A DNA stretch of 64,000 bases from an uncultured Hyphomicrobiales bacterium. GTDB taxonomy: Bacteria; Bacteroidota; Ignavibacteria; Kapaibacteriales; UBA2268. Where the stretch lies: NCBI GenBank assembly GCA_964650885.1, contig CAZYXG010000004.1, forward strand, positions 9,723 to 73,722. Reading direction: 5' to 3'. The notes under the pieces were generated by a model. It was not told where the DNA came from, did no database searches, and saw nothing but the letters and a program-made list of their open reading frames with translations. The position numbers and the translations under genes were made by a program. Positions 6,158 through 58,701 of this stretch are shown here, piece after piece (the first letter of the stretch is position 1; each line of letters begins with the position of its first letter).

Positions 6158-6254
6158 TTTTGGTATAATTTATGATAGAATTTTACTGTTTTGTATGTTT
6201 TGTTTATGCAAATTATTACAAAAAAATATATTAATCGCTATCAAAGGTGGGGAA

Positions 6255-32572: not shown

Positions 32573-32576
32573 TCAA

Positions 32577-41150: not shown

Positions 41151-41194
41151 TCAAATCCCGAGTAGTAAAAAGTTGCTATTTCGGGATTTTGATT
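41151..41194 (+). terminator. Hairpin (possible weak terminator or attenuator) downstream of the E1 gene
   Basis: TCAAATCCCGA ... TCGGGATTTTGA form a roughly 10-bp stem with an 18-nt loop, then TTGATTATATTTTT. Confidence 0.3.
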
Positions 41195-41288: not shown

Positions 41289-42002
41289 ATGAGTGATAAA
41301 GAAATATTGAGAGAAGAAGAAATAGAAGAAATTGAAGGCGGAGAAGAAACTACGTCTGGAAGTGGCTTCCAAATGGGTAAAACCCTGTTATACACAATCA
41401 TTGCGGTTGTTTTGGTGGTAGCTGGAGTAGGTGGATACTATTTCTATAAATCAGGTGTGAAGAAAGATAGCATAGAGTCAACTAAAGCATTGACAAGAAT
41501 TATTCCTTTATACCAACAAAATCAGTTTGAAAAAGCTTTAATGGGCGATAACTCAATATTGATTGATAACAAACCACTAATGGGTTTGGTAGCAATTGCT
41601 GATAAATTTAAAAACGAAGTAGGCAAGCAAGCAGCAGTATATGCGGCAAACTCATTTATGTTTACAAACAAAATGAATGATGCTGAGAAATACTTCAAAA
41701 TGGCAGCCGAAGCTGAAGACAAACTAATTAAAGTAGCAGCATATTCTGGCTGGGCACAATGCCAAGAATTGCAAGGCAAATTTGCTGAAGCGGCTGATAA
41801 CTATTCTAAAGCAGCAGATATGAGTGAAACAGATAATTTCAAAGTTAAAAATATGCTTTTTGCAGGGCTATGCTTTGAGAAAGCAAATAATAAAGATAAA
41901 GCAGTTCAAAACTTTAAAGATGTGATTGGCACAAACAGAGTTTCTGAGTACGCAAGAGTTGCTAAAGGACGCTTAGCGTTGCTTGGCATAATTATTGATT
42001 AG
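41289..42002 (+). CDS. Membrane-anchored TPR-like protein (YfgM-like architecture)
   Basis: 237 aa. Acidic N-terminus MSDKEILREEEIEEIEGGEE, one TM helix LLYTIIAVVLVVAGVGGYYFY, then an alpha-helical TPR-like periplasmic domain. Same topology and size as E. coli YfgM. Confidence 0.55.
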   Translation: MSDKEILREEEIEEIEGGEETTSGSGFQMGKTLLYTIIAVVLVVAGVGGYYFYKSGVKKDSIESTKALTRIIPLYQQNQFEKALMGDNSILIDNKPLMGLVAIADKFKNEVGKQAAVYAANSFMFTNKMNDAEKYFKMAAEAEDKLIKVAAYSGWAQCQELQGKFAEAADNYSKAADMSETDNFKVKNMLFAGLCFEKANNKDKAVQNFKDVIGTNRVSEYARVAKGRLALLGIIID

Positions 42003-42144: not shown

Positions 42145-45100
42145 ATGCAACGATTTTATCGTTTGTTTTTATTGGCTATGATAGCTTTACTGGCAGTAAA
42201 TGTCGGTTTGGCTCAGAAGCCAATTGTGTACGTTTCGGGGAAACTCACCCCAAATAATGTAAGGACTTTCCAAAAGGATTCCCTTTACATTATTAATAAT
42301 GAGTATGTAGTAGGAGGAACTCTACTAATAGAGCCAGGTACGGAAGTTCAATTCTATCCAAATGGTAGATTGATTGACTCTACTGGTGGTCGTATCATCG
42401 CTGATGGTGATGCAAGTGCTGTTTATACACCTCAACCAAACAATGGTGGGTTAGACATGGATCCTATTGCAGGAGCAAGTCCGTTGAATCCATTAAATTG
42501 GTCTGGTTATGCAGACTTGAACTACTTTACTTACTCTAGTGGAACTGCTACAAACAGAAACACTATTAAAGTAAACACTGTTCGCGATTTGACTGTCCAC
42601 TCTACTAAAGAGAACATAGTATATAATGTCGTTATCGACAAGTCAACTAGAAGATTAAAGAATTTAACTCCAGGTTATGTTCTTGGTATTAATGAAGAAA
42701 TCATTCCTTTTGAAAAAGCAATGATGTTGCAAATTTCAAGAATGGTTAACGATCCAAATTCAGATGCCTTATTGAACAACAGACCTTGGAAAAGAATTAA
42801 AACTACAACTCAAACAACTGATATCGTAGATATTACTTCTGGACAAATTAAATTTAATGGACAAAACACAAATAACATTTCTCGTGAATGGGGACACATT
42901 GTAATCCTTCCAGGTGCAAGAGCTGCTTTCTTTAGAAATTGTAAATTTGAAGGTTTCAAAAAAGATACTACTGTAGATAGACTTCCTTATTATAATGTTA
43001 ATCAAGGTGGCGCTGGTGAAGTTGCTGCTTGGAGATCTGTAAACGAAAAATTAAAACAATTATCGAATGGTTCAGGTGGAGCGATTACATCGTTTTCTTC
43101 TAGAACTTGGTTGTTGAATGTAGAATTTAACAACAATAGAGCTTTCCGCCGTGGTGGTGCATTGCAATTATTGCAAGCTCCTAATGGTTTTCCAGGTTCA
43201 TTCGCAACTTTGAATGACTTGGTAGCTTCTGTTGGTGAATACGATTTAAATAAAAATCCAAATATTACTGATAAAGATGGATTGGCTTCTCAAATTTTAG
43301 CTAAACCAGAAGTAATAATACCTAGATTAAGTATGTTGGATGAAGCAGCTGGTACTACACCATTTGCAGTTGCTGCCTTAGAAACTAATGATAGAGATAG
43401 ACAAAACTGGGATGATGCTCGTTTGGCATTATACTTAGGTAGAATTAGAAATGTGAAATTTACTAACAACAAAGCTCAATTGAATAATGTTGGTATGGTT
43501 TCAGTTGGTATTCCACCTGTAACTCAAGTAACAGACATTTTGACTACTCCTGCTGCATTCCCAACTAACTACGGTAGTACTGTAGCTGGTGGTGCTTTGT
43601 ATATTTCAGGTAATGGAGAAATTCCTGGTACGTACGATGAAGCAAACTTAAATGAAACTGCAAACAGAATGATTGAAGTTGGTTTGGGTATTAATAATTC
43701 AATTAATATTTCAACAGGAACATTAACATTCCCTAATGCTGACTCATTTACTGCAACAAACAACGAAGCTAAAAACTATCAAAGTAATCCTTCTTCGCCA
43801 GGTGCGAATGGTGGAGCTATCTATGCTGGTGCTTACACTTCTTTAATAGTTGCTGGTAACTTTACTTCTAATAAAGCACAAGCTCCTTTTATGCAAAGTG
43901 ACGCTTTAAGTGTTGGTGCTGATAGATATGCTCGTGGTGGTGCGATTTTCGCTACTAACACACAAGCTAGATTGCAAGTAGTTGGTGGTAAATCAAGAGA
44001 TTTGATTAGCAACGCAACTTTATTTACACGTAACGAAGCTGCATCTGGTGGTGCAATTTATGTTTCTGGTAACTCTTCAACATACTCATCTCCAATCATT
44101 GGTGGTGCTGATAATACATTAGAAAGAAGAGATGTTGGATACAATATTCAATTTGATAACAATAAAGCATTAGTTTACGGTGGTGCAATTTACACATTGA
44201 GAAATATGTATGTAAATGGTGCTGGTGGAGCTACTCCAATTGAATTAATCGGTTATGATGATTTCAACAGAACTCGTTTTGTGAATAACACAGCTGGTTA
44301 TTCTGGTGGTGCGATTAGTATCAATATTCCTAATAACTCTATTTTACGTTCTTTCAATAGAAATATTGAATTCGTAAGAGCTTACTTTGGTAATAATACT
44401 GTAGGTAATGCAGTAAATAATACTAACGTAGCTGAAATTAGAGGTGGTGGTGCTGTTTATAATTTAAATGGTAACGTTGGCTTAATTAAAGGTACTGAAT
44501 TTAATGGTAATATCGTTTATAACTCAAACGGTGGTGCATTAACAACTGTTCACCCAGAACAATCACAAAGAAGATTTGTAATATCTGATTTGGATGTTGT
44601 AACTTATGAACCAGCTGCTGACGAAAACAACGTATTCTCAACAGACTTAATTCCTTCTTTTTATACAACTGCTGACGCTATATTTACAAAAGCACCTGGT
44701 GCTCCTTATCCAGCTGATGTAAGAATGATGACTAGATTTATTGGTAACAAAGCTTTAACTCCTGATGCAACTATATTAGCTGCTCAATCTGGTTCTGGTG
44801 TTACTCAAGTTGGATCTGGTACTTTAAAAACAACTGAACAATTGAAAGGGATGTTCTGGATTAACGAAACAACTGGTTATGCAGTTGGTGGAAACGGAAC
44901 AGTAATTAAATTTACAAACGGTGGTGACGAATGGAACTATGTTTCAACTGGCTCTACTGCAAACTTGAATGATGTATTCTTTACTAGTTCTAACGTTGGT
45001 TATATCGTTGGTAATCAAGGTACATTATTGAAAACAACTAATGGTGGTACTACTTGGTCTGCTATTAATGTTGATGTATTGACAGGTGGTTCTCCAGTTG

Positions 45101-48100
45101 TTAATACTTCTAACTTTACAAGCATTTCATTTGTTGGTTCTAACTCAGGTTATGTTACAACAAATAATGGTTATGTAATTAGAACTTCAGATGCTTTTGT
45201 ATCTAATTTCAATACAAATATTGATAACAATGGTATTCAAGCTAGCCCTCTGAATAATATTTACACTTCTGGTGTAGATAACTATACTGCAGTTGGTGAA
45301 GTTAAAACTATCTTGAAAAGAGATTTAGGATTCCCTTCTTTCACTTTCCAAGTTTCTCCAGTAAATGCTGTATTTAATACAGTATGGTACACTTCTTCTA
45401 CAAGAGGTTATATTGGTGGTACTAACGGTACTATCTTGAAAACTATCAATGGTGGTATAGACTGGAATCAAACAATCAACCCTGCAACTGGTACTATCGG
45501 TGCATTGACATTCGTATCTCCTTCTAAAGGATTTGCTGTTAATGGTTCTGGAAAAGTATTAACTACAGTTGATGCTGGTGATACATGGACAGAAATAACA
45601 GGTAACACAAACTTAAACGCATTGTATGATTTATCATTCCCAACGCCATCAATTGGTTTTGCAGTTGGTAATGCAGGTACATTGCTGAAATCAACTGATG
45701 CTGGCGCTACTTGGAAATCTGTTGGTCCAAATGATCAAAGTGTAGTTGATGTAGTAAGAAAACACAAAGGTACTGATTTGCCAGAAAATGGTATCGGTCT
45801 TGGTGGTGCAATTTACTTATTAGATAAAGCAAACATTGCAAGAATTGGTCGTAGAGATTCAATTCAGTTCAACCGTGTAAGAATGCAAAATAACGAATCT
45901 TATACAGGTTCTGTTATTTATTCTGATAACTACGATTTGAAATTGATTTTAAATAGAACATTGATTATTGGAAACAAAGCTAACTCTAAAGTTGGTGTAA
46001 CTCAAAATGTAATCACTGGTCCAATCGAAAGAGACAACACTGGTAGAGTAATTGCGAACAAAGCATCTTCAGATTTAGTACCTGCTACTATTTATGGTGA
46101 GATTCAAGGTCCATTGCCAAGTGCAAGTTTCTCTGTTGCAGCAAACTCAATTTATAACAATGATGCAAAATTCTTAATTAGATTACCAGATGCACCTAAT
46201 ACTAAAGGTGTATTGGCTGGAACATTGGGTCTTGGACTTGGTGGTACAGATACATTGCGTGGTAACTATTGGGGTCAAACTGAAGCTAACGTAATTTTGG
46301 AAATTCAAAATATCGTACTTGGTGCAGCGAAAACAACTCAAGAAACATTCTTTGTGGAAGGTAATGGTACTACAGTAATGAAATTTATTCCTACTGCTAC
46401 TACTAACTTAACTGAACAAGGTCCTTTTGAGTCAATTTCAAGATATGCTTACACTCCAATTCCATCTATGAATAATGTGAACAATGAAGATTTAGCAGCT
46501 GCTAATACTATTCCAGAAAACTTATTGCTTTCTGGTAAAGTATATGACATTTATGACAAAGGTACAGATGTTAAAACTGCTGATTATTCAAAACGCAGAA
46601 TGTCTCCAATTGAAGATTTCGCTGTTGGTATTGCACCAATTTCAAGAACTTATGCAGTAGCGAATACTCCTTCAAATGGTAAACACGTAAAAAGATACAT
46701 TCGTGATCCATTTGCAACTGAAGCATTATCATCTGGTACATTGACTAACCCTTGGTTAGCTTCTATGCAAGATGAATTTAGAAATGATGCAAATGGTAAT
46801 AGTTACCAACCATTAGGTATGCCTTTATTCTTAGAATCTAGAGTAAACTATGATGGTCTAATTGAAAATAGCAACCACGATCCATTGATGTTGAATGAAG
46901 CAGTTTACTTTGTAATCAACCAGACTTCTGGTGATTTAATTAGAGTAAACATGAGACAATTAAGTGAAGATGCACCAGGAAGAGAATTATTAAGAGCTAG
47001 AGTTGATTTAGTTCCAGATTCAACAATTTCTCCTGCAACTCCACTTGAAAGATACAATAGAGCATCTATAAGAAGAAGCGGTGAAGGAATTGCAAACTAT
47101 GGTATCGGAAGTGATATCTTGAACGCACTTTATAGAAACGCTGATAGAGAAGATAAAGCTGTTTTAGTTGGTAGAAAATATGATGCAAACATCACTGATT
47201 TTGCAAACGACGCATCTATATTCTCTAACAGACCAAGTATTACTGGTAAAGCAACTTATTTTGCTGGCGAGAGATACAGAGCATTGCCAGTTTGTGTTGG
47301 CGATAAAATTCAAATTTTATCAAGAACTGCACTTTGGAATCAAGGTATAGCAGCTGCAGATGCTGGTTCAATTACTTTTACAATTAGTAACTCAACTATG
47401 CCTCCAAGATTTACTGGAAACATTATTAGCTTGCAAAAAGATACAATTGTTAAAATTGTTCCTTCTGAATTGCAAAGCAAACGTCTTTTAGGTATTCCTG
47501 ATACTATTAGAATGGTTGAACTTTTGAATAAAAAATTCATCACAGAAGATAGATCTTACCCTAGAGTAAGAGGTACTTATAGCTCAACTACAACATTGCC
47601 AGAAAATGGTCGTGGTACTGACTCAATTTTGACTGTAACAGCTACTGATACAAACAAATTCTATGACCCACGTTCATTCTTTGCACCTGACAAATTCCCA
47701 AGATTAACTTATACTTGGAATGTTGACCCAACTTCTGGTTTGGCTAGATGGATGCAAGCAGATACAATTAAAGTAACAAATGTAGGAACTCCAAATGCGA
47801 ATAGCCAAAACCCAAGAGACTTGGCGTTAGGTTATATCAAATTTAGAGGTCAAGCAATTAATCCTTATGTTGTTCCTGGTGGTGAAGATGTAACTGTAAC
47901 TGCTGCTAACTATCCACCATCTTTCAGATTGTTGGATACGTTAAAATCTTATGGCGTTACTGACCAAAATATTTTAGATTACTCTGTAAATATTTATGGT
48001 AAATACTTCCATGCTCCAGTTTATGATAACATCAATGCAAGATACTTGCAACAAGATACAATCAACAGTGGTAAAAACTTTACAGTTTCTCACACATACA

Positions 48101-50331
48101 AAATGTTTGTAGTAGATAGTTTGCCAAGAATTTTTGAAAATGACGAACCTGAATCTGCTGTAACTAGAACTAAATCAGATGGCACATTGTTAGATACAAT
48201 AGTTCACTATGTACCTTCAGTTTATACTTGTGATTTGACTCAAGACGGTAGATTGAAAGCTAATTTGACTGATAAATTAAGATTCCAAATTGACATTAAC
48301 TCTGATGATGAATTAGAAGATAATGCTGCAATTGCAAAAGGTTGGGATTTCAAATATGGTCAATCAGCTTATGCATTCTTAAATAAAGTAAGAAATGGTG
48401 GCGATATCAACAATCCAGTTGATATTGTATTGGATACTACTTTTATTTGGGATAATGATTCACAAACTTACACTGCTGTATTGAATCAATCTAAACCAGG
48501 TTGGTTAGATGATAAATACATGTACAGATATGCTGATGAAACAACTCAAGATCAATTTGTTCAAGACTTTACTGCTAAAGGTCAAATCAACATACGTATT
48601 CCACGTGCTCAAGCTTTGACTTTGTTAACTCCAGTAAATGTTCAGAACAATGCTTTGAATACAGACACATCAATGACAATCATTTTGAATGATGGTCACG
48701 GTGGAAAAACTCAGAAGAAATACAATGTATTTGTGAACGTAGCTCCACAAATCTTGACTAATTCATTGGCGAATGCTAAAGAAGACTTTGATTATAACCC
48801 ACAATTGTTAGATTCTAACGTTAACGGTACTCGTATGATTAGAGTATTTGATGCAAACTTTGGACAAGCAAGAACATTCGAATTGATTTACAAAGCTTAT
48901 TCAAGCAACACTATTTCTAAAGACCCTTGCTACATTGAAGCTGGTGTTTGGGATGTTACTAACTTGAAAACAACACCAGAATGGTTGAAAATTAACCCAA
49001 TTACTGGTTTGTTATATGGTAAACCTGGAATCAAAGATGCACCAAAAACTGAATCAGTTACTGTATTAGTTACTGATGCTGAAGGATTGACAGATTTAAG
49101 AACTTACCAATTAGTAGTAGAAAAAACTGATCACAATCCAAACTTATCAGCTGCTCCTAATGTAAATTGTATTGATGGTACTAAATCTTACTTAGATACT
49201 TTAGTAGTATCTGATAGAGACTTAATTAGAGATGCTTCTGCAAATCCAAATGAAGAAAACTTAACTTTAACAGTTATTTCTCCATCTGGATTAACATTAG
49301 AACCTTCTACAGTTAAAGGACCTTTGTCTGATTCAACAATTAAAGTTGTAATCAAATCAACTGGTACTGGTTTCAATCCAGCTCGTGATAACGATGGTAA
49401 AATAACAGTAAGAATAGAAGTAACTGATGGTGCGGGTAACAAGAGTACTTTAATATACAGATTGAAAGTTAGCGAAGCTACTAGATTTGTAAGTAATGTG
49501 AAAGTAACTAACTCAATCGGTGGAACTCAAATACTTGAATGGGGTACAGCAGATAGAAACGTATCTACAGGTGATAATACTGATGGTGCTGCAATAGGTA
49601 AATTAGATTCTAACTATTGTGAGTATGAATTAGCTCCTTATCCTCCAACAGACGTATTTGATGCTAGATGGACAATACCAACAATCAATGGTGTGGTTAG
49701 ATCTATTTATCCTTCTTCTGTAAACAAAAACCAAATCTACATTGCACAATTACAACCTGGTGATGTAACTGGTAGCGGTAGTGGTAACTATCCATTGACT
49801 ATATCTTGGGATATGACAAGTGTTCCAGATAAATCTGACGCAGCTAAAAATCCTACTAGTTCTTCTTGGGCTATTAGAGATGCCTTATCTAACGGTAACT
49901 TGTTCAGTATTAACATGAACACAGGTGACGGTAGATTTGTAAATGGTTTCGAAGGTAAGAAAAATGGTAACCAATACGAATTGACTGTAAATAATACTTC
50001 AACTAAAGCTTTCGTTATCTTCCAAGATTGGAATAGCGATGTGGCAACTGACTACAATCCTGCATTTACAAACAAAATTAGCACAGTTTCTCCAAATCCT
50101 GTTGTAAACCAAGCTAATATTGAATTTGAACTTGCAAACTCTAATAATGTTTCTATTGAAATAGTAGATATGTTGGGTAACGTAGTTGCAACTGTAGCAA
50201 ATGGTTTCTACACTCCAGGTCAATACAAAATAGTATGGACTGGCGCAGAAAACATGGCTTCTGGTGCATACGTGGTAAGAATGAACGCAGGAACTGTAAC
50301 TGATACTTATTCAGTAACCATAGTTAAATAA
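42145..50331 (+). CDS. Giant (2728 aa) T9SS-sorted adhesin-like surface protein: Pmp-type beta-helix repeats + Ycf48/BNR beta-propeller + Ig/cadherin-like (He_PIG-type) domains + CTD
   Basis: Track ORF 42022..50331. The ATG at 42145 is preferred: GGAGG at 42136-42140 and signal peptide MQRFYRLFLLAMIALLAVNVGLAQ. Repeated GGAIY/GGALY...F(T/D)NN blocks lie at about 43085..44560. BNR/Asp-box motifs TTNGGTTWSAIN, TINGGIDWNQT, TTVDAGDTWTEIT and KSTDAGATWKSV lie at about 44850..45730. NVAPQILTNSLANAKEDFDYNP and ITGLLYGKPGIKDAPKTESVTVLVTDAEGLTD lie at about 48700..49480. The C-terminus ...SPNPVVNQANIEFELANSNNVSIEIVDMLGNVVATV...SGAYVVRMNAGTVTDTYSVTIVK is a CTD. Confidence 0.75.
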   Translation: MQRFYRLFLLAMIALLAVNVGLAQKPIVYVSGKLTPNNVRTFQKDSLYIINNEYVVGGTLLIEPGTEVQFYPNGRLIDSTGGRIIADGDASAVYTPQPNNGGLDMDPIAGASPLNPLNWSGYADLNYFTYSSGTATNRNTIKVNTVRDLTVHSTKENIVYNVVIDKSTRRLKNLTPGYVLGINEEIIPFEKAMMLQISRMVNDPNSDALLNNRPWKRIKTTTQTTDIVDITSGQIKFNGQNTNNISREWGHIVILPGARAAFFRNCKFEGFKKDTTVDRLPYYNVNQGGAGEVAAWRSVNEKLKQLSNGSGGAITSFSSRTWLLNVEFNNNRAFRRGGALQLLQAPNGFPGSFATLNDLVASVGEYDLNKNPNITDKDGLASQILAKPEVIIPRLSMLDEAAGTTPFAVAALETNDRDRQNWDDARLALYLGRIRNVKFTNNKAQLNNVGMVSVGIPPVTQVTDILTTPAAFPTNYGSTVAGGALYISGNGEIPGTYDEANLNETANRMIEVGLGINNSINISTGTLTFPNADSFTATNNEAKNYQSNPSSPGANGGAIYAGAYTSLIVAGNFTSNKAQAPFMQSDALSVGADRYARGGAIFATNTQARLQVVGGKSRDLISNATLFTRNEAASGGAIYVSGNSSTYSSPIIGGADNTLERRDVGYNIQFDNNKALVYGGAIYTLRNMYVNGAGGATPIELIGYDDFNRTRFVNNTAGYSGGAISINIPNNSILRSFNRNIEFVRAYFGNNTVGNAVNNTNVAEIRGGGAVYNLNGNVGLIKGTEFNGNIVYNSNGGALTTVHPEQSQRRFVISDLDVVTYEPAADENNVFSTDLIPSFYTTADAIFTKAPGAPYPADVRMMTRFIGNKALTPDATILAAQSGSGVTQVGSGTLKTTEQLKGMFWINETTGYAVGGNGTVIKFTNGGDEWNYVSTGSTANLNDVFFTSSNVGYIVGNQGTLLKTTNGGTTWSAINVDVLTGGSPVVNTSNFTSISFVGSNSGYVTTNNGYVIRTSDAFVSNFNTNIDNNGIQASPLNNIYTSGVDNYTAVGEVKTILKRDLGFPSFTFQVSPVNAVFNTVWYTSSTRGYIGGTNGTILKTINGGIDWNQTINPATGTIGALTFVSPSKGFAVNGSGKVLTTVDAGDTWTEITGNTNLNALYDLSFPTPSIGFAVGNAGTLLKSTDAGATWKSVGPNDQSVVDVVRKHKGTDLPENGIGLGGAIYLLDKANIARIGRRDSIQFNRVRMQNNESYTGSVIYSDNYDLKLILNRTLIIGNKANSKVGVTQNVITGPIERDNTGRVIANKASSDLVPATIYGEIQGPLPSASFSVAANSIYNNDAKFLIRLPDAPNTKGVLAGTLGLGLGGTDTLRGNYWGQTEANVILEIQNIVLGAAKTTQETFFVEGNGTTVMKFIPTATTNLTEQGPFESISRYAYTPIPSMNNVNNEDLAAANTIPENLLLSGKVYDIYDKGTDVKTADYSKRRMSPIEDFAVGIAPISRTYAVANTPSNGKHVKRYIRDPFATEALSSGTLTNPWLASMQDEFRNDANGNSYQPLGMPLFLESRVNYDGLIENSNHDPLMLNEAVYFVINQTSGDLIRVNMRQLSEDAPGRELLRARVDLVPDSTISPATPLERYNRASIRRSGEGIANYGIGSDILNALYRNADREDKAVLVGRKYDANITDFANDASIFSNRPSITGKATYFAGERYRALPVCVGDKIQILSRTALWNQGIAAADAGSITFTISNSTMPPRFTGNIISLQKDTIVKIVPSELQSKRLLGIPDTIRMVELLNKKFITEDRSYPRVRGTYSSTTTLPENGRGTDSILTVTATDTNKFYDPRSFFAPDKFPRLTYTWNVDPTSGLARWMQADTIKVTNVGTPNANSQNPRDLALGYIKFRGQAINPYVVPGGEDVTVTAANYPPSFRLLDTLKSYGVTDQNILDYSVNIYGKYFHAPVYDNINARYLQQDTINSGKNFTVSHTYKMFVVDSLPRIFENDEPESAVTRTKSDGTLLDTIVHYVPSVYTCDLTQDGRLKANLTDKLRFQIDINSDDELEDNAAIAKGWDFKYGQSAYAFLNKVRNGGDINNPVDIVLDTTFIWDNDSQTYTAVLNQSKPGWLDDKYMYRYADETTQDQFVQDFTAKGQINIRIPRAQALTLLTPVNVQNNALNTDTSMTIILNDGHGGKTQKKYNVFVNVAPQILTNSLANAKEDFDYNPQLLDSNVNGTRMIRVFDANFGQARTFELIYKAYSSNTISKDPCYIEAGVWDVTNLKTTPEWLKINPITGLLYGKPGIKDAPKTESVTVLVTDAEGLTDLRTYQLVVEKTDHNPNLSAAPNVNCIDGTKSYLDTLVVSDRDLIRDASANPNEENLTLTVISPSGLTLEPSTVKGPLSDSTIKVVIKSTGTGFNPARDNDGKITVRIEVTDGAGNKSTLIYRLKVSEATRFVSNVKVTNSIGGTQILEWGTADRNVSTGDNTDGAAIGKLDSNYCEYELAPYPPTDVFDARWTIPTINGVVRSIYPSSVNKNQIYIAQLQPGDVTGSGSGNYPLTISWDMTSVPDKSDAAKNPTSSSWAIRDALSNGNLFSINMNTGDGRFVNGFEGKKNGNQYELTVNNTSTKAFVIFQDWNSDVATDYNPAFTNKISTVSPNPVVNQANIEFELANSNNVSIEIVDMLGNVVATVANGFYTPGQYKIVWTGAENMASGAYVVRMNAGTVTDTYSVTIVK

Positions 50332-50426
50332 TAAAATATTGTGTAAGCCCTTTTCTAAAGTAGAAAAGGGCATATACAATAAAAATAAAAATCTTGGAAA
50401 TGAAAAATAATAACGGAGTTAATAAA

Positions 50427-52343
50427 ATGAGAAAAAAAATCTACGGAGCTTTGGGAGCCCTTGCGCTTTCATTAACTATGCTCGTGCAGACTTCTACTGC
50501 TCAAATCTACGGTGAATTTGAAACCGTGAAAGTAGTACAAGAAAATTATACCCCTATTATAGGTGGTACAGTACATGCATCAACTGAATTCAAATCAGGC
50601 GATTTAGGAATCGGCGGCGTGACTGATAAAGATGATGGATATAAAAAAATAACATTGCCATTTACATTTGAATTTAATGGCGATAACTATGATGAAGTTT
50701 GGGTTAATGTTAATGGATATGTTCAGTTTTTGAAACCTGGCGTACTTCCTTTATCTTTACCTCAAAAATTAGGTACTCGTTTGTTTACATTTGACAACAG
50801 TAGTGTTGCCTATAATGTTGTTGCTCCTTTCTGGGGTGATCACTTTTATAGAGATGGAGGTGATATATCAAGTTCATTTACACCATCTTCAATAATTACA
50901 CAAGCTTTACCAAGCCTAAGTTCTGCTACAGTATTTACTATTGAGTGGAAAGACTTACAAGTAAATAGAGATATAACAAATTTAGCTAATACAAACTTGC
51001 AATCTTCTATTGCAAATTTTCAAGTTAAATTCTACAAATCTACTATTTCAAGTACAAAACAAGGCGATATCGAATTTTGCTATGGTTTAGTTGGTAATAA
51101 TCCTAGACTACCTTCTTCTACTACAATCACAGATGTAATTACAAGAAATGCATCTATTGGAGTGAAAGGCGATGTTGGTGATTTTATTAATGCATTGCAC
51201 AACGATGTTTTTGGAACACCTGCTTTGGCAAAGTCTTCAACAATCTTGACAACTGGATGGCAACCATCTGGCGGATCTAACAGAAGATTACGTTACATAG
51301 CTAAAAGAAACTTTAATGTTGCTGAATTCTGGGGTGATGGAGATGCTGACTTCTCTAAAGCTGAAGGAAGACCACACGCTGCTTTCTTTAATGTACAAAA
51401 CAGATATGTAACTATCAATGATGTTCGTGTAATCTTAAGAAGCGTTGCAAGAAGAATTCCATTAGACAGTATTAGAAGAAGAGCTGCATTCCACGCAGAC
51501 GTTACTCACAATGGCCGTTTCTACTATAATGGTGGTGTAAGAACTTCTATTCCAAATAGAGATTTGAACTATGATGAGAATTTACCAGCTGGTATTTCTT
51601 CTGAAAAAGTTGTTTATTACCAAGCAAATGAATTTGATGCAGCAATTATTTTAAATTATTTGTCTGCTAAATTACCTTCATTACCTTGGAGATACGACAC
51701 AGTTCCTTTATATGGAAAAGAAAAATTCGATGGTGCTTATGCTAACAGCATTAAATTAGGAACTTCAGTTAAAGATAATGGTATTGTAAGATTACCAATC
51801 TCTTTAAACGGTAGAATTAATGGTGCTTTAGGCGTTAAATTCAATGTGAATGGCGAAATCGTTAATGTTGTTGGAAACGGCGATAATAAATTAGCTTTTG
51901 ATTTTGATGGCAACACAGTTGTTATAGCTGGTGCTGGTGAATTCGCTGCTAACGAAGAAATTGCTTACCTTGATGTGAGAACTACTTCAAATGAAATTAA
52001 ATTGACTGATATAAATTTCAACGATAACCAAGTTGGCGAAATTTCAACTTTAGAATCATTGGAAGACAATGGCGCTAACTTAATGAATACTCCAAATCCA
52101 TTTAACACTACAACAGATATTAAGTTTGATGTTGCTGTTTCTGGAAACTATGCTTTAGCTATCTATGATGTTTATGGTAAACTTGTAAAAGAATTATCTA
52201 ACAATTTCTTGAATGCTGGAAAGTTTTCATTTAATTGGGATGGAACTACTCTTACTAATGAATCTGCTCAATCAGGTATGTACGTTGCTAAATTAACTTC
52301 TGGCAATAATACTTACACTGTTAAAATGGTTCTTACTAAGTAA
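50427..52343 (+). CDS. Hypothetical T9SS-sorted secreted protein
   Basis: Track ORF from 50394. Start ATG at 50427 (MRKKIYGALGALALSLTMLVQTSTAQ, with GGAG 9 nt upstream) or at 50394. The C-terminus NTPNPFNTTTDIKFDVAVSGNYALAIYDVYGKLVKEL...SGMYVAKLTSGNNTYTVKMVLTK is a CTD. Confidence 0.6.
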   Translation: MRKKIYGALGALALSLTMLVQTSTAQIYGEFETVKVVQENYTPIIGGTVHASTEFKSGDLGIGGVTDKDDGYKKITLPFTFEFNGDNYDEVWVNVNGYVQFLKPGVLPLSLPQKLGTRLFTFDNSSVAYNVVAPFWGDHFYRDGGDISSSFTPSSIITQALPSLSSATVFTIEWKDLQVNRDITNLANTNLQSSIANFQVKFYKSTISSTKQGDIEFCYGLVGNNPRLPSSTTITDVITRNASIGVKGDVGDFINALHNDVFGTPALAKSSTILTTGWQPSGGSNRRLRYIAKRNFNVAEFWGDGDADFSKAEGRPHAAFFNVQNRYVTINDVRVILRSVARRIPLDSIRRRAAFHADVTHNGRFYYNGGVRTSIPNRDLNYDENLPAGISSEKVVYYQANEFDAAIILNYLSAKLPSLPWRYDTVPLYGKEKFDGAYANSIKLGTSVKDNGIVRLPISLNGRINGALGVKFNVNGEIVNVVGNGDNKLAFDFDGNTVVIAGAGEFAANEEIAYLDVRTTSNEIKLTDINFNDNQVGEISTLESLEDNGANLMNTPNPFNTTTDIKFDVAVSGNYALAIYDVYGKLVKELSNNFLNAGKFSFNWDGTTLTNESAQSGMYVAKLTSGNNTYTVKMVLTK

Positions 52344-52344
52344 T

Positions 52345-53475
52345 TTGGAAAAGATATTGAAAATATGGCTACTTTTAATTGCTATCTTTGCGATAAGTAG
52401 CCATAATTCAATTGCTCAACCAAAGTTTCAGATTGTTCTGAAAAACAATAACGGTACCTTAGACTTATGTGGCAATAGTTTTAGAAAGGAAGTTCTATTA
52501 ACTGTTAACCTTGGATTAATTGAATCAAAAGATTCTCTTTTGGGATTTAATTTCAAGATAAAGTATGACACAAATAAAGTAAAATTTAATACTTATTTGA
52601 AAAGTAATACTTTGAGTGCGTTCTTTAATTTTGCTGATGGTAGAGTGTCAAGGACTGAACAAGGACTTTTTGCAAGCGGTGGACAAATCAATGATTTGTT
52701 TGTACCAATTGTTGGGAATAAGCCTCTTGTAGCTTTTGCTGGTGAATATATTGCTGATTGTAATGATTCAACTATAATTGAAGTCGAATATTTTGAGTTC
52801 AATGATGAGTTTACGAAAAAATTAGATATAGATACACCTTATGTTAGCCTGAAAGTACTTGGCGAAATTGAAAAAAAACCAGAAAGAAAAATGGTAGTCA
52901 ATTTCACAAAAGACACAATCGTAATTTATGCGGATAGTCTTTATGAGGAATCTTTCGAATTAACTTCAATGGCAAATAGTAAATCAGAGAATGTTACAGT
53001 AACTTTTACTAAAGATTCTGATAAAATTAGAATCACAGATTTAGTTGCCCAAGATAGCTCTGCTAAAGTAACTGTCTTTTTGAATGACTTTGCATTAACA
53101 CTTGCTGAAATTAATAATCAGCAAACTGGTATCACTAAAAAGTTTAAAATGAAGTTGAAATCTGAACTAGATGAAGATTTCGTTACTAAGATTTATACTA
53201 AAAGTGAAATCAATGTTAACTGCACTTGCATTACTGAGATATTTGAAGATAGCGTAACTGTTATAGTTAAAAAGAAACAAATAAATTCTGTCGTTGAAGA
53301 TAGAAACTATTACGAAAACTTGAAAAAAATTGACGTTTACAACTACTTAGGTCAAAGAGTGAAAGAAGTAAATAGTTTAATAGAATTAAACAAAATGCCA
53401 AACGGTATATATTTACTTGAAATAATATCTGAAGACAATACTAAAAGGTTACAAAAATTGATAATAAACAATTAA
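52345..53475 (+). CDS. T9SS-sorted protein with cohesin-like N-terminal domain
   Basis: 376 aa. Signal peptide MEKILKIWLLLIAIFAISSHNSIAQ. ...KEVLLTVNLGLIESKDSLLGFNFKIKYDTNKVKFN resembles the cohesin core (F.F.I.YD.N.L). The short CTD is ...DVYNYLGQRVKEV...PNGIYLLEIISEDNTKRLQKLIINN. Starts 2 nt after the upstream gene. Confidence 0.5.
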   Translation: MEKILKIWLLLIAIFAISSHNSIAQPKFQIVLKNNNGTLDLCGNSFRKEVLLTVNLGLIESKDSLLGFNFKIKYDTNKVKFNTYLKSNTLSAFFNFADGRVSRTEQGLFASGGQINDLFVPIVGNKPLVAFAGEYIADCNDSTIIEVEYFEFNDEFTKKLDIDTPYVSLKVLGEIEKKPERKMVVNFTKDTIVIYADSLYEESFELTSMANSKSENVTVTFTKDSDKIRITDLVAQDSSAKVTVFLNDFALTLAEINNQQTGITKKFKMKLKSELDEDFVTKIYTKSEINVNCTCITEIFEDSVTVIVKKKQINSVVEDRNYYENLKKIDVYNYLGQRVKEVNSLIELNKMPNGIYLLEIISEDNTKRLQKLIINN

Positions 53476-53507
53476 TTAATTTTTAAATATTTAAATGGAG
53501 TCCTAAT

Positions 53508-56500
53508 ATGAAGGATTTTTTAACAAAAATGAAAAGCGGTAAGTTTATGCTTGCGTTTATGCTATTAATGGCATTAACAATTGCATCTACAGACTTATAC
53601 AGCTTAGCTTATGGCGGAAAACCACAAAAGCCACGTCTTAGTTTGACTGGAGCGGCTGATGGTTTTAACTCTGATTGGTACCCTGATGGTAAAATTTGGT
53701 TGCCAATATCTGCAAATGGTACAAGAGAATTCTTAATGCCAGTATTTCTTGATAATAGATACGATACAAGAATTGTAAGAAGAACTACTCCACCATTGCC
53801 AGATACTATCTACTACGTAGTAGATCCTATCAAAAGTTTTAGATTTAAAATTATGTACGATAGCGCTGCTGTAAGAGTTGTCGGTGTACAAGCTACAAAT
53901 CCAGACAATGCTCCTGTAGATTTGTCTGAACAACCATTAGCTAATAGTTTCAATATTTCATGGAGCGATTCAGCTGATGTGAAATACATGTACTATGTTA
54001 GAGATGGAAGTTTAACTAATCCAAATTATACAGGGCCTACAAGTGCTGATGCACTTAGAGGTAGATCAGTAACTATTACTGGTGCTTCAGATAAAGCTTT
54101 GGCAAGTACTTATAATAGCCCGAACAATCCTGATCAAGGAGTTAACTATAAAGTTTTGGTTTATGTTAAATTTAGAATCGTACCAAAATCAGACGCTGAT
54201 TTGACTACTTCTAGATTAACTCCAGTATATATTTCACCAGATGAAATAATGTACAATAACTGGAATGCTGCGAAAGATCCAATTTTACCTTACTATAGAG
54301 AAAATGCTAATTCTGCTGCCCAGTGGGCTTCAGATTATACTGGTGAGACATATTCACCTGCTAATTATTTTGGTCAAAAAACTTTAGCAAACGTTTATGT
54401 AGATCAAACAAGAGCTTTGGCTGGTATTAACAATACTTCTGAAAGAGAAAATAACTTACAATTGCCTCCAAGTCCTTGGGGTAGTTTATGGGTTAGATTT
54501 TTCTCAACTCCATCTTTATTTGCATTTAAATCAAACAGATCTATTGATCCTCCAAGAGCTATTTCTAAATTAAGTAAAACTGTTAACGGTCAAGTTGTAG
54601 AAGATCCATCTAATTGGGAAATTATTACTCCTATTACTGTTGATAACAACCCAAGTAACCCAAGTGTTGGCACTAGAGAAATGGAAATCTTTTTGGAAGG
54701 AAGCGGAACAAGAGCTACTGACGTAACTATTGAATCTGATTCTCCTTGGTTGCTTTTCTCAAGCAAAACTGGTGCTGCTTATAAATCAAGTCCATCTATG
54801 TCTTCACCTACAAGAAGTGGTTACATTAACTGGTTGGATAATGGTATTTTGGGCAAAAATGGTTTAGCTACTCCTACAGTATTAGGTGGCGATGCACCAG
54901 AAGAATTAATTTCTGCTATCAATATCCTATGCGATCCAAGTAAATTGACTTTAGGAAATGGAGAGAAAGAAGGTATCCATGTAGGTTACTTGACTTTCAG
55001 ATCTAACTTTGCTAACATTTCTCCTACTAGAGTGAAAGTTACTTTTATTTACTTTAAATCTCCACAAGAGGGTATTAGAGCTGGTGCAGCTCCTGGTATC
55101 AAAATCAAAATGAGAAACTCTAAACCAGTTACTCCTGATACTACATCTTTGATTTTTGGAACAGGCCCTAGAGCTACTAGAGGTGTTGATACGCTTTATG
55201 GTGAATATGCTAAAGAATTCTGTAGCTTCTGCCCAAGTGCTAGCCCAAGAGTTTTTGGTGCTGCTTTCTTCCCTTATAGAATGAAACCTGCTGATTCATT
55301 GGCTACAGCTAAATTTGGTTTTGGTGATTTTTCTAAAAATGACGAAAAACCATATTCTGCTTCTAGAGATATTAGAAGTGTAGATGATTCAACTGAATCA
55401 ATTACTTACTTAGTGAATTTCTTTGCTAATGGCGATGCGAATTACCCTGTAACATTGGAATGGGATTTGAGAGATTTCCCTGATGGTGCAAGTTTGTTTT
55501 TGAAAGATAACTTGAATGGTGGTGGTTTCCCTGCAGTAGATATGAGAAATACTACTGTAACAGGTCAATATACTCGTTCTTTCGTAATTCAAGATCCAAA
55601 AATTACTTCTTACTTGATTGAATATACATTGCCAACAGTAATTGATTACGTTGATGATAACAAATTGCCAATCATTAAAACTGGTTGGAACATGCTTTCT
55701 ATGCCTGTTAAACCAACTAATACTCAATACCGTAATATTTACAGAAATGCTATTGCAAAACCATACAACTATGCACTTGGTAACTATCAAGAAAATGATG
55801 TGCTTACAGCTGGTGTTGGTTATTTTGTGAAATATGGTGTTACTATTGATAGTAAATTCTCTGGTTCTGTGATTACTGAAATCTCTCCAGCTGTTGGAAA
55901 TACTGTAAAAGTATGGCCTGGCGATGCTGGAAAAGGTGGATGGAATTCAGTTGGTGGTTTATCTTTCCCAACTTCAATAACAAATATTGATTTTGAAAAA
56001 TTTGGAACTGTTGCTTTACCAGACAAAAACTATACATTGAAATTTGGTGTTTGGACTTACAAAACTAGCAATGGTTATTTTGAAGTTTCTGAAATCAAAC
56101 CAGGTTTGGGTTACTTCATTAAAGTTGATAAAGATGGTTACTATAAATTGACTAACCCTAATATTAAAATGGGTGTCAATATGTTGACTAATGGTAAAGA
56201 AGCAATTTACAATGCTTCTACTGCTATCAATGTTGTTGATAACGCAAACAGCAAATCTGTTGTTTACTTATCAAACAATACTGAGTTAGAAGTAGAAAAC
56301 TTTGAAATGCCTCCAGCTCCTTCAACTAATATGTTTGATGTACGTTTTGCTACTACAAATACTAACTTAGTAAACAATGATAATGCAGTTATCAGCATGC
56401 AAGGTGTTACTTACCCTGTATCTATATCTGCTAAAAATGCTAACTCTAACTTGTCATTTGTTGATGCAGTTACTGGTGAAGTATTTGGTAACATTTTGAA

Positions 56501-56834
56501 AGGTTCAGAGAAAAACATTGAAATTAAATCTAGTTCAAGTGCAGTTAGAGTTATAGCTACTGAAAGCAATGATGAAGCATCATCTTTCGTTAATTATCCT
56601 AACCCAGTAACTAACAATACTAATTTCAACTACAGTGTAGCTAACAATACCAACGTAACAATTGAAATCTACAATCAAGTAGGTTCAGTAGTTGCAACTG
56701 TTGTTAATGAATTCCAAAAAGCTGGAAATCACACAGTATCATTTGACGCAAGCAACTTGCCAAGTGGTTCTTATGTTGTGAAATTCAACTCTAATGGTAC
56801 TACTGCTACTCGTACAATTTCTATCGTTAAGTAA
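53508..56834 (+). CDS. Hypothetical large (1108 aa) T9SS-sorted secreted protein
   Basis: Signal peptide/TM MKSGKFMLAFMLLMALTIASTDLYSLA. No assignable catalytic motif. The C-terminus YPNPVTNNTNFNYSVANNTNVTIEIYNQVGSVVATV...SGSYVVKFNSNGTTATRTISIVK is a CTD. Confidence 0.6.
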   Translation: MKDFLTKMKSGKFMLAFMLLMALTIASTDLYSLAYGGKPQKPRLSLTGAADGFNSDWYPDGKIWLPISANGTREFLMPVFLDNRYDTRIVRRTTPPLPDTIYYVVDPIKSFRFKIMYDSAAVRVVGVQATNPDNAPVDLSEQPLANSFNISWSDSADVKYMYYVRDGSLTNPNYTGPTSADALRGRSVTITGASDKALASTYNSPNNPDQGVNYKVLVYVKFRIVPKSDADLTTSRLTPVYISPDEIMYNNWNAAKDPILPYYRENANSAAQWASDYTGETYSPANYFGQKTLANVYVDQTRALAGINNTSERENNLQLPPSPWGSLWVRFFSTPSLFAFKSNRSIDPPRAISKLSKTVNGQVVEDPSNWEIITPITVDNNPSNPSVGTREMEIFLEGSGTRATDVTIESDSPWLLFSSKTGAAYKSSPSMSSPTRSGYINWLDNGILGKNGLATPTVLGGDAPEELISAINILCDPSKLTLGNGEKEGIHVGYLTFRSNFANISPTRVKVTFIYFKSPQEGIRAGAAPGIKIKMRNSKPVTPDTTSLIFGTGPRATRGVDTLYGEYAKEFCSFCPSASPRVFGAAFFPYRMKPADSLATAKFGFGDFSKNDEKPYSASRDIRSVDDSTESITYLVNFFANGDANYPVTLEWDLRDFPDGASLFLKDNLNGGGFPAVDMRNTTVTGQYTRSFVIQDPKITSYLIEYTLPTVIDYVDDNKLPIIKTGWNMLSMPVKPTNTQYRNIYRNAIAKPYNYALGNYQENDVLTAGVGYFVKYGVTIDSKFSGSVITEISPAVGNTVKVWPGDAGKGGWNSVGGLSFPTSITNIDFEKFGTVALPDKNYTLKFGVWTYKTSNGYFEVSEIKPGLGYFIKVDKDGYYKLTNPNIKMGVNMLTNGKEAIYNASTAINVVDNANSKSVVYLSNNTELEVENFEMPPAPSTNMFDVRFATTNTNLVNNDNAVISMQGVTYPVSISAKNANSNLSFVDAVTGEVFGNILKGSEKNIEIKSSSSAVRVIATESNDEASSFVNYPNPVTNNTNFNYSVANNTNVTIEIYNQVGSVVATVVNEFQKAGNHTVSFDASNLPSGSYVVKFNSNGTTATRTISIVK

Positions 56835-56920
56835 TTCACTTAACTTAGAGATACAATTCTATAAATGGGTAACATTATTGCAATGTTACCCATTTTATTT
56901 TTTTAGATGGAAATAATGAA

Positions 56921-57664
56921 ATGAAAAAATATTTTCTCTTATTAATGTGCTTATTTGCAACTAAACTTGTTGCTTCTGAAGATATTGAAATTAAGTTAAA
57001 AATTACTAACGAAGAAAATTCAAATTATACTCTTACCCTTGGGGTGAGCGATACTTTGACAGATAATTATGATGAGGGTAGTAATTTAGAAAGAGATATG
57101 CCTGATTTTCCACCTTCAGAAGGTATATTGCCATATTTTAAAATATATGCTGAATCGCAAAAAGTTGATATATATTCGCAAGCCGATATAAAAAAATTAG
57201 AAAAAGATAGTTTAAGTTTTACTAAAAAATATAAATTAGTTATTTTAGGAAACAGTCTTTCCGATTATACATTGGAATGGTTCTTAAGTCCAAAGTATAT
57301 TAGGTCTGCTAAAATATTAGATGAGTTTGGCGGAAATGTATTAAATATAGATATGCTTAAGCAATCAACTGTAAAAGTTAATAGATTTTTGAAAGATATA
57401 ACTATTGAAGTTGTGTATTTGAATCCAACTATGGATTTGCCAATTGAAGATAAATTAAATTTGAAGTTTTATCCTAACCCTAGTAAAGATATGATAAGTT
57501 TCTCACAAAATGTAACAAAATGGGAAATATTTGATTTGTTGGGTAATAAGATAATTTCTGGCAGCGAAAAAGAAATTGATTTAAGAAATTTCGCTAATGC
57601 TTGTTATTTGATTAAATTGCATTCAAAAGAAGGTACCAAGTACCAAAACTTGATAAAAGAATAA
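56921..57664 (+). CDS. Hypothetical small T9SS-sorted secreted protein
   Basis: 247 aa. Signal peptide MKKYFLLLMCLFATKLVASE. The C-terminus LKFYPNPSKDMISFSQNVTKWEIFDLLGNKIISGSEKEIDLRNFANACYLIKL is CTD-like. Confidence 0.55.
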   Translation: MKKYFLLLMCLFATKLVASEDIEIKLKITNEENSNYTLTLGVSDTLTDNYDEGSNLERDMPDFPPSEGILPYFKIYAESQKVDIYSQADIKKLEKDSLSFTKKYKLVILGNSLSDYTLEWFLSPKYIRSAKILDEFGGNVLNIDMLKQSTVKVNRFLKDITIEVVYLNPTMDLPIEDKLNLKFYPNPSKDMISFSQNVTKWEIFDLLGNKIISGSEKEIDLRNFANACYLIKLHSKEGTKYQNLIKE

Positions 57665-57672
57665 TAACCTTT

Positions 57673-58701
57673 ATGGAAAAAGAAGAAAAAAAGAAAGTAG
57701 AAAGTGAAACTGGGCAGCAAAAACCTAGAAAACCTCGCTTTGCAAACAATAGAAATAATTTCTCTAGCGATACTGCTATTTCTGTGGTAATACCTTTGCT
57801 AAATGAGGAGGAATCGCTAAAAGAACTTTCTCAAATGCTAGAAGTAGTATTGGAAAAAGAAGTAGGCAAAAAGTATGAAGTACTTTTTATTGACGATGGC
57901 TCTACTGACAAATCATTCGATGTGATTAAAGAAATACACGCTAAAAACTCAAACTTTAAAGTAATCAGATTCAGACGTAATTATGGTAAATCAGCTGCTT
58001 TAGCAATTGGTTTCGATAAAGCTCGTGGAAAAGTAGTCATAACAATGGATGCCGATTTGCAAGACGATCCCAATGAAATACCTAATTTAATGGCTAAAAT
58101 TAAGGAAGGTTACGACTTGGTCTCTGGTTGGAAAAAAACAAGACACGATCCAATTGGTAAAACTTTACCAAGTAAGTTTTTCAATTTCGTCACTTCAAAA
58201 GTTTCTGGAATTAAGCTTCACGATTTTAATTGTGGATTGAAAGCATACAAAAGAGAAGTTACTAAGTCTCTAAAAGTTTATGGCGAAATGCACAGGTACT
58301 TGCCAGCATTAGCTCATATTGATGGATTCAAAGTAACCGAGATTCCTGTATTGCATCATCCCAGACTTTATGGCAAATCAAAATTTGGTGCATCAAGATT
58401 TGTGAAGGGCTTTTTAGATTTAACAACTGTAGTCTTCACAACTAAATACTTGAAAAGACCATTGCACTTTTTTGGAACAATAGGTGTCTTATTTATGCTG
58501 ATTGGATTCATTATTGACTTATATTTAAGCTATATTTGGCTATATAAAAATGAGTCTTTGAGCAACCGACCATTGGTACTTTTTGGTGTTGCGTTGATTA
58601 TTGTTGGCGTTCAGTTCTTCTCTACTGGTCTTTTGGGCGAATTGCTTGTTAAGAATAGTAACATTAAAGAAAATTACTCAATTAAAGAGCAAATATTTTA
58701 A
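57673..58701 (+). CDS. GT2 polyprenyl-phosphate glycosyltransferase (ArnC/GtrB/DPM1-like) with C-terminal TM helices
   Basis: 342 aa. ISVVIPLLNEEESL, FIDDGSTDKS and ...ITMDADLQDDP are the GT2 DXD motifs. Two C-terminal TM helices. A 35-aa charged N-terminal extension. Starts 9 nt after the upstream gene. Confidence 0.75.
   Translation: MEKEEKKKVESETGQQKPRKPRFANNRNNFSSDTAISVVIPLLNEEESLKELSQMLEVVLEKEVGKKYEVLFIDDGSTDKSFDVIKEIHAKNSNFKVIRFRRNYGKSAALAIGFDKARGKVVITMDADLQDDPNEIPNLMAKIKEGYDLVSGWKKTRHDPIGKTLPSKFFNFVTSKVSGIKLHDFNCGLKAYKREVTKSLKVYGEMHRYLPALAHIDGFKVTEIPVLHHPRLYGKSKFGASRFVKGFLDLTTVVFTTKYLKRPLHFFGTIGVLFMLIGFIIDLYLSYIWLYKNESLSNRPLVLFGVALIIVGVQFFSTGLLGELLVKNSNIKENYSIKEQIF

Follow-up and report, generated by a model that had tools for sequence, protein, structure and literature searches.

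A lineage-wide conserved array of type IX secretion cargo genes of Kapabacteria type, a candidate multi-protein cell-surface structure

Five consecutive open reading frames (ORFs) on the plus strand, here named g1–g5, occupy positions 42145–57664 of the window (the whole 64,000-nucleotide stretch of contig CAZYXG010000004.1 that was analysed), at the coordinates assigned to them in a preliminary description of this DNA. Each of the encoded proteins ends in a type IX secretion system (T9SS) sorting domain, and the genes recur in a fixed order in related genomes. With moderate confidence, we read the array as part of a lineage-wide conserved, Kapabacteria-type locus for a non-enzymatic multi-protein cell-surface structure that is exported and anchored by the T9SS. 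The five genes probably build one surface structure, since they are kept in the same order across related genomes. A multi-protein surface assembly had been proposed in the preliminary description from a cohesin-like domain; it is still the best reading, with sorting domains in all five proteins and synteny in 63 of 64 loci, but it is one that we infer, and its cohesin–dockerin basis is unproven because none of the five families yielded a dockerin. To our knowledge, nearly all studies of T9SS cargo concern Bacteroidia and Flavobacteriia, and most deal with individual enzymes or adhesins. The view that the operon is uncharacterized held up: full-text literature searches on the T9SS, gliding or metaproteomics of Kapabacteria or Ignavibacteria, and on Pmp repeats with T9SS, returned no paper on this cluster, and the titles and opening parts of the abstracts of papers on T9SS with cohesin and dockerin contained nothing on it.

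The T9SS type A C-terminal sorting domain (CTD; model TIGR04183, cut-off 23 bits) is present at the extreme C-terminus of g1, g2, g3, g4 and g5 with scores of 26.7, 36.4, 24.8, 40.1 and 32.3 bits, respectively, so the CTD predicted for all five proteins was confirmed by the profile search. The gathering score of PF18962 is passed by four of the five proteins (g3 reaches 23.5 vs 27). At the family level, PF18962 was found in 41 of 53 g3 orthologues, and in a profile search the g3 family hits CTDs of known structure, those of RemZ, NucA and RemA (E 9e-8 to 1e-6). On these sequence grounds, g1–g5 are assigned to the T9SS type A cargo. The type B model, TIGR04131, gave a match in g2 only, far below its cut-off (E 0.036, 14 bits vs 35). 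Hydrophobic N-terminal segments were found in g1, g3 and g4, and the N-termini of g2 and g5 are signal-like by eye only. The putative signal peptides of g1, g2 and g3 end in LAQK, TAQI and IAQP, so the mature proteins would begin with Gln, in agreement with the Bacteroidetes 'Q-rule' (PMC5837995); g4 and g5 lack this pattern. Pfam, NCBIfam, PDB profile and fold searches detected no catalytic family in g1–g5, as had been expected for the members listed as 649, 1108 and 247 aa long, and no T9SS core component was found among the scanned ORFs of the window. The spacers measure 95 nt (g1–g2), 1 nt (g2–g3), 32 nt (g3–g4) and 86 nt (g4–g5); of the range of 2 to 95 nt reported before, the upper value is right and the lower one is not.

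The arrangement is not confined to this contig. A scan with g4, using one genome per species, found relatives in 140 genomes, the best 80 of which were analysed (80 different assemblies, one locus each); the window proteins were placed on all of these loci by phmmer, and 64 loci had enough DNA to be testable. The order g1-g2-g3-g4 on one strand is present in 63 of the 64, and the sole exception has a gap of the size of g3. Synteny had been set beforehand as a test that could refute the proposal, and the homologues are syntenic, not scattered. Since the same genes recur in the same order in all but one of the testable loci, the array is more than a chance arrangement. A g5 gene, detected with the g5 family profile, follows g4 in 59 of these loci, and a family 2 glycosyltransferase gene (GT2) is located at most 1.5 kb from g4 in 55, usually followed by genes for a 241–275-aa protein and a family 9 glycosyltransferase (GT9). 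The lengths of the orthologues are also held within narrow bounds (g2, 610–733 aa, with four variants of ∼930 aa; g3, 360–421 aa; g5, 248–289 aa), and order, strand, spacing and lengths are maintained down to 32% g4 identity, with flanks that differ past GT9. Conservation extends beyond the five genes: the block includes a TPR protein gene upstream and the GT2, barrel and GT9 genes downstream. In the closest non-identical relative (L001, 13324–14493), g4 is followed by an unrelated ORF of 346–389 aa and two HSP20 genes instead of g5-GT2-barrel-GT9, so this downstream unit can be uncoupled from g1–g4. The 80 assemblies are labelled mostly Kapaibacterium, Kapabacteria or Ignavibacteria, and the NCBI taxonomy places Kapaibacterium within Bacteroidota and outside Bacteroidia, in line with the earlier assignment to a non-Bacteroidia lineage. 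A separate search for g4 homologues retrieved ∼25 full-length relatives with identities down to 35%; a few of them are named by source (Candidatus Kapabacteria or Bacteroidota), and these names give no more than 'hypothetical protein' or 'T9SS type A sorting domain-containing protein'.

Three of the five proteins, g1, g4 and g5, share a module that has no Pfam or NCBIfam match. In family-to-family alignments with hhalign, the N-terminal domain of g5 matches the g4 family (residues 526–710) with a probability of 96% (E 1.5e-9) and the g1 family (from residue ∼2448 on) with a probability of 98% (E 1.2e-13), the latter alignment also extending into the CTD. The module is rare: its profile found only 285 among 1.84 billion representatives, and nearly all carriers have g1-, g4- or g5-like lengths and module positions. 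Among ten carriers of odd length, nine match a T9SS CTD model or FlgD_ig, which overlaps with it, and some of these have additional Ig-like or lectin-like domains; the tenth matches cadherin- and Ig-type models only, and none of the ten matches an enzyme family.

The spacers on either side of the g2-g3-g4 group contain RNA structures that are conserved in position. A GC-rich hairpin comparable to the one in the g1–g2 spacer of the window follows g1 in 65 of 67 loci, nearly always starting at most ∼15 nt from the stop codon. Its median stability is −20.6 kcal/mol vs −5.4 kcal/mol in shuffled sequences, and values of −14 kcal/mol or lower occur in 97% of the loci vs 0% of shuffles. This hairpin is conserved in position and stability but not in sequence, and a U-tract is usually missing, which is why it falls outside the definition of a Rho-independent terminator in most loci. 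It may be an mRNA-stabilizing or attenuating element. The g4–g5 spacer carries the GC-rich hairpin with an immediate U-tract that defines such a terminator, and the 81-nt spacer holding it has a z-score of −4.2. Hairpins of −12 kcal/mol or lower with at least 4 T follow g4 in 81% of 75 loci vs 1.3% of shuffles, with a median start 21 nt past the stop codon. The motif occurs once in the window, and its interpretation as a generic repeat was rejected for that reason. The terminator stem is partly similar (ATGGGCAACA... or AAGGGCAGCAG...) between species whose g4 proteins are only 32–50% identical, which is unusual for a terminator. The g2–g3 and g3–g4 spacers are unstructured, an Rfam scan of the window found a tRNA and nothing else, and a scan for sigma-70 promoters was uninformative, with fewer sites than in shuffled sequences. 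The single transcription unit proposed in the preliminary description is too simple: the conserved post-g4 terminator and post-g1 hairpin speak against transcription of all five genes as one plain unit. From these elements, the predicted layout is g1, possibly preceded by the TPR gene, then past the first hairpin g2-g3-g4, and beyond the terminator a second unit, g5-GT2-barrel-GT9.

These observations bear on the alternative that fares best, namely that g1–g5 are independent surface proteins which are kept together by shared regulation or slow rearrangement and form no joint assembly. This genome commonly carries T9SS cargo genes, and another one lies outside the array at 14381–17410 on the minus strand (1009 aa, IgGFc_binding with E 1e-58 and a type A CTD). 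Housekeeping flanks are also partly conserved, with an E1 dehydrogenase gene upstream in locus L070 as well. Mere co-regulation accounts poorly, however, for order, strand, spacing and lengths that persist to 32% g4 identity while the flanks past GT9 differ, for a module that is common to three of the proteins and almost confined to these families, or for intergenic RNA structures that are positionally conserved. We therefore regard independent cargo as unlikely, though as the most credible of the rival explanations.

Table 1. Positions of the array genes, their mapped parts, the spacer hairpins and the neighbouring genes of the conserved block
Feature	Coordinates	Strand	Description
TPR protein	41289..42002	+	TPR_1, TPR_12, TPR_2 (Pfam); acidic N-terminus; one transmembrane segment; directly upstream of g1
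g1	42145..50331	+	2728 aa; predicted T9SS cargo
g1 Pmp-repeat parallel β-helix	42322..44754	+	residues ∼60–870
g1 Ycf48/BNR-like β-propeller	44824..45744	+	residues ∼894–1200; PSII_BNR E 1e-20
Shared module in g1	49486..50079	+	residues 2448–2645, just before the CTD
Stem-loop in g1–g2 spacer	50337..50381	+	GC-rich; followed by an A-rich stretch, no U-tract; ΔG −25.1 kcal/mol, z −8.2
g2	50427..52343	+	638 aa (649 aa from TTG 50394); NIDO-like N-terminal domain, WGDGD...DVNHNGR segment, β-sandwich, CTD
g3	52345..53475	+	376 aa (372 aa if TTG 52357 is the start); predicted T9SS cargo
g4	53508..56834	+	1108 aa; chain of β-sandwiches including a cohesin-fold domain, and the shared module; predicted T9SS cargo
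Shared module in g4	55083..55643	+	residues 526–712
Intrinsic-terminator-like hairpin in g4–g5 spacer	56863..56905	+	14-bp stem and U-tract; ΔG −16.4
g5	56921..57664	+	247 aa; shared module and CTD; predicted T9SS cargo
GT2 glycosyltransferase	57673..58701	+	Glycos_transf_2 E 2.5e-32; polyprenyl-phosphate type
Small outer-membrane β-barrel-like protein	58704..59510	+	268 aa; signal peptide
GT9 heptosyltransferase-like protein	59519..60628	+	Glyco_transf_9; last conserved gene of the block

The largest protein of the array, g1 (Table 1), is composed of a putative signal peptide, a Pmp-type β-helix, a Ycf48-like propeller insert, a second β-helix stretch, a conserved region of ∼800 aa, He_PIG and cadherin-like Ig domains, the shared module and the CTD, in this order. 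Translation is assigned to the ATG at 42145, which follows a GGAGG sequence and is the same start as in the orthologues. These are 44–59% identical to g1 over the full length (∼2700 aa), and g1 is better conserved than g3 or g5. In the N-terminal third, the motif GGA[ILV] occurs 11 times vs 0.3 ± 0.55 expected and FxxN 24 times vs 9.8 ± 2.9 expected, and the Chlam_PMP family was detected in all 11 orthologues tested (best E 1.5e-15); this part is assigned to a Pmp-type parallel β-helix because of the GGA[ILV] excess and the Chlam_PMP matches in every orthologue. The g1 family profile matches solved Ycf48 structures with E 2e-27. The propeller is missing in 4 of the 11 full-length orthologues and is therefore an optional insert. 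A stand-alone Ycf48/BNR-like propeller protein of 331 aa, of the same propeller type as the insert, is encoded at 61658–62653 (+), right after the second GT9 gene, and lies outside the conserved block in other loci. The most conserved stretches of g1, residues 1300–1400, 1451–1500 and 1551–1600, have no family match, and the He_PIG and cadherin-like Ig domains stand before the C-terminal module and the CTD. Neither an autotransporter family match nor a C-terminal autotransporter β-barrel was found in g1, whose C-terminus is the T9SS CTD, and no SprB repeats were detected.

The proteins g2, g3 and g4 are smaller and built of β-structured domains. For g2, the start at 50427 is the one conserved in the orthologues and gives a protein of 638 aa; the length of 649 aa stated earlier belongs to the upstream TTG start and has to be corrected. 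The NIDO domain (PF06119) was found in 15 of 59 g2 orthologues with a best E of 1.9e-6. In the four long variants (L060, L061, L062 and L065), query residues ∼65–291 match twice: the NIDO-like N-terminal domain is duplicated in tandem, and this duplication accounts for the extra length; transfer of the propeller from g1 into the long variants was rejected. A strikingly conserved Asp-rich segment of g2, WGDGDVD...VTxNDARxIMRS...DVNHNGR, resembles a dockerin or EF-hand by eye, and this identification was rejected, as a profile of 26 sequences gave no Dockerin or EF-hand match in Pfam and no PDB match at E up to 10. The g3 protein is fast-evolving and all-β, with orthologues of only 18–32% identity, four invariant cysteines (C42, C139, C293 and C295) and a weakly cohesin-like N-terminal domain. 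The cohesin-like character claimed for the third gene stands only in part: Pfam Cohesin (PF00963) gives weak signals in 6 of 53 family members (best E 0.0015) and the gathering score is never reached. One domain of g4 has the nine-stranded β-sandwich fold of cohesins; no Cohesin match was found in the g4 family by Pfam at E up to 1, and PDB profile searches of the g3 and g4 families returned no cohesin at E up to 10. That g2, g3 and g4 might have paralogous 'cohesin-like' parts was rejected, since hhalign found the CTD alone in common.

The same domains raise the question of a scaffold similar to a cellulosome, in which cohesin-like modules of g3 and g4 would capture dockerin-bearing enzymes encoded elsewhere, and which would form a T9SS-anchored complex for the degradation of polymers. 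The cohesin fold of g4, the weak signals in g3 and the Asp-rich segment of g2, calcium-binding-like by eye, speak for such a scaffold, and the BNR/Ycf48-type propeller of g1 weakly matches a glycosylhydrolase family model. The Asp-rich segment, however, has neither a Dockerin/EF-hand nor a PDB counterpart, Pfam searches of the five families find neither a Dockerin nor another known cohesin ligand, the block contains no carbohydrate-active enzyme, and the Cohesin gathering score is not attained by any member. Moreover, the cohesin fold is a common β-sandwich that also occurs outside cellulosomes. We regard a cellulosome-like scaffold as very unlikely.

Upstream of g1, a terminator-like hairpin at 41156–41186 precedes the gene of the TPR protein. 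The hydrophobic segment of this protein spans residues 26–54, and the protein resembles PorW/SprE weakly, in the TPR part and at the level of TPR only (24.8 bits, NCBIfam cut-off 250). The gene is located upstream of g1 in all four loci with enough upstream DNA (L039, L070, L072 and L085). Downstream of g5, the GT2 protein comes closest to the ArnC-like and PgfS-like models of NCBIfam without reaching the cut-off of either, and residues 262–326 form C-terminal hydrophobic segments, assigned as transmembrane helices. The window copy of the barrel-like protein has no family match; its orthologues weakly match OMP_b-brl (9 of 51) and OMP_b-brl_2 (7 of 51), and the gene is syntenic in 56 loci. The GT9 protein matches the Heptosyltransferase I, II and III models below their cut-offs and is syntenic in 45 loci. 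That the locus encodes envelope or T9SS machinery, either lineage-specific counterparts of PorU and PorZ or a lipopolysaccharide (LPS)-linked envelope module together with the adjacent glycosyltransferases and barrel, is very unlikely, as neither a C25 peptidase or other machine domain nor homology to PorZ was found. Two further observations concern more distant parts of the window. At 31340–33800 (+), a DNRLRE-domain protein (410 aa) is followed by a protein that matches the BamG family (β-barrel assembly machinery) with 219 bits, slightly below the cut-off of 250. A 1082-aa ORF at 5985–9233 (+) has a single FG-GAP-like repeat match and nothing in NCBIfam, and its gene call is uncertain because its 5′ end overlaps two minus-strand ORFs.

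Under our preferred reading, that of a jointly assembled surface structure, each of the five proteins would cross the inner membrane by the Sec pathway and the outer membrane by the T9SS. In Porphyromonas, the CTD of type A cargo is cleaved and the new C-terminus is tied to an LPS-type outer-membrane glycolipid. By analogy, the CTDs of g1–g5 would be removed and the new C-termini joined to an outer-membrane glycolipid. A link between the cargo and glycolipid genes of the block is plausible, since the Porphyromonas cargo attaches to a glycolipid of this kind. The g1 protein would form a long projecting fibre, the main fibre or adhesin of the structure, with the Ig-like domains and the shared module near the membrane and the Pmp-type β-helix, with or without the propeller, as the distal binding end. 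The g2, g3 and g4 proteins could serve as accessory or connector subunits that dock by cohesin-like and other β-sandwich domains, and g5, composed of the module and the CTD, could be a small membrane-proximal partner. The post-g1 stem-loop most plausibly sets the expression of g1 relative to g2–g4; as in pilus operons, this unequal expression would arise from 3′-end stabilization or partial termination. The post-g4 terminator would separate the second unit, g5-GT2-barrel-GT9, which may supply or modify the glycolipid anchor. The structure as a whole would most likely function in adhesion or as a surface coat.

Several findings weigh against this reading. The strongly conserved central region of g1 (∼800 residues) matches no fold, and a hidden enzymatic or other activity is possible there. 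The AlphaFold2 model of g3, built from five sequences, is of low confidence (pLDDT 47.8), and the five families yielded no known ligand for a cohesin, as described above. Five of the 64 testable loci have no g5, and the glycosyltransferases are missing downstream in nine of the 64, so their linkage to the array is frequent and not obligatory. A bolder formulation would take the entire block from the TPR gene to GT9 as a previously unseen, class-defining organelle of Kapabacteria: a complex of fixed stoichiometry with a giant β-helix fibre, cohesin-like connectors and a new membrane-proximal module common to three subunits, with T9SS-dependent anchoring to a dedicated glycolipid that GT2, barrel and GT9 would produce, and with subunit ratios set by a conserved intra-operon RNA hairpin. 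We consider this version possible and rather doubtful.

Solid results are the conservation of the array, the new module and the RNA elements; what the array does is inferred. Across a whole uncultured class-level lineage, itself widespread in sediments, springs and reactors, four to five cargo proteins are maintained as a fixed set. Three handles for further work emerge, namely a domain without Pfam or NCBIfam match, cohesin-like modules outside a cellulosome context and conserved RNA structures within an operon. If the proteins assemble, the locus would be a model for multi-subunit surface structures built by the T9SS, and a candidate marker and surface antigen of Kapabacteria. If they do not, the genes still form a well-defined set of families that is hidden under generic annotation labels.

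The closest parallels among known systems are other surface-anchored type A cargo proteins, for example the S-layer proteins TfsA and TfsB of Tannerella forsythia and the gingipain/adhesin complexes of Porphyromonas. As is generally known for these, the proteins encoded by the array combine a putative Sec signal peptide with a type A CTD, are of large size and of non-enzymatic or adhesin-like character, and come from adjoining genes. Attachment to an outer-membrane glycolipid is presumed, and glycosyltransferase genes adjoin. Unlike these systems, the array has four to five different subunits in a fixed order, with no detected sequence relationship to TfsA/TfsB or the gingipain complexes beyond the CTD; three of its proteins carry a module unknown to Pfam, it belongs to the Kapabacteria lineage, and it is known from its genes alone.

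Individual parts of the array have counterparts elsewhere. The chlamydial Pmps are adhesins and type V autotransporters with a C-terminal β-barrel (PMC11166332, PMC10715098). The N-terminal third of g1 resembles them in its GGA[ILV] and FxxN β-helix repeats, but the C-terminus of g1 is a T9SS CTD, and g1 far exceeds the Pmps in length and contains a propeller insert and Ig-like domains. From the cohesins of scaffoldins (PF00963; 1ohz, 2vn5, 2xdh, 5nrk), the cohesin-like domains of the array differ in that the Pfam gathering score is unreached, no dockerin partner was found, the cluster contains no enzymes and the secretion route is another one. With the SprB/RemA loci of Flavobacterium (sprCDBF), the array shares a giant T9SS surface protein accompanied by smaller accessory proteins on one strand. 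SprB, however, has a type B CTD and an adjoining barrel of the PorP/SprF family, whereas all CTDs of the array are of type A and no PorP/SprF match was found, the nearby barrel having only weak and generic OMP_b-brl similarity. In pilus operons such as papBA, intercistronic stem-loops set the ratios of subunits. The array resembles papBA in that a strong hairpin without a U-tract is located right after the presumed major structural gene and before the accessory genes; it differs in that the role of the hairpin is proposed here from its conserved position and stability only.

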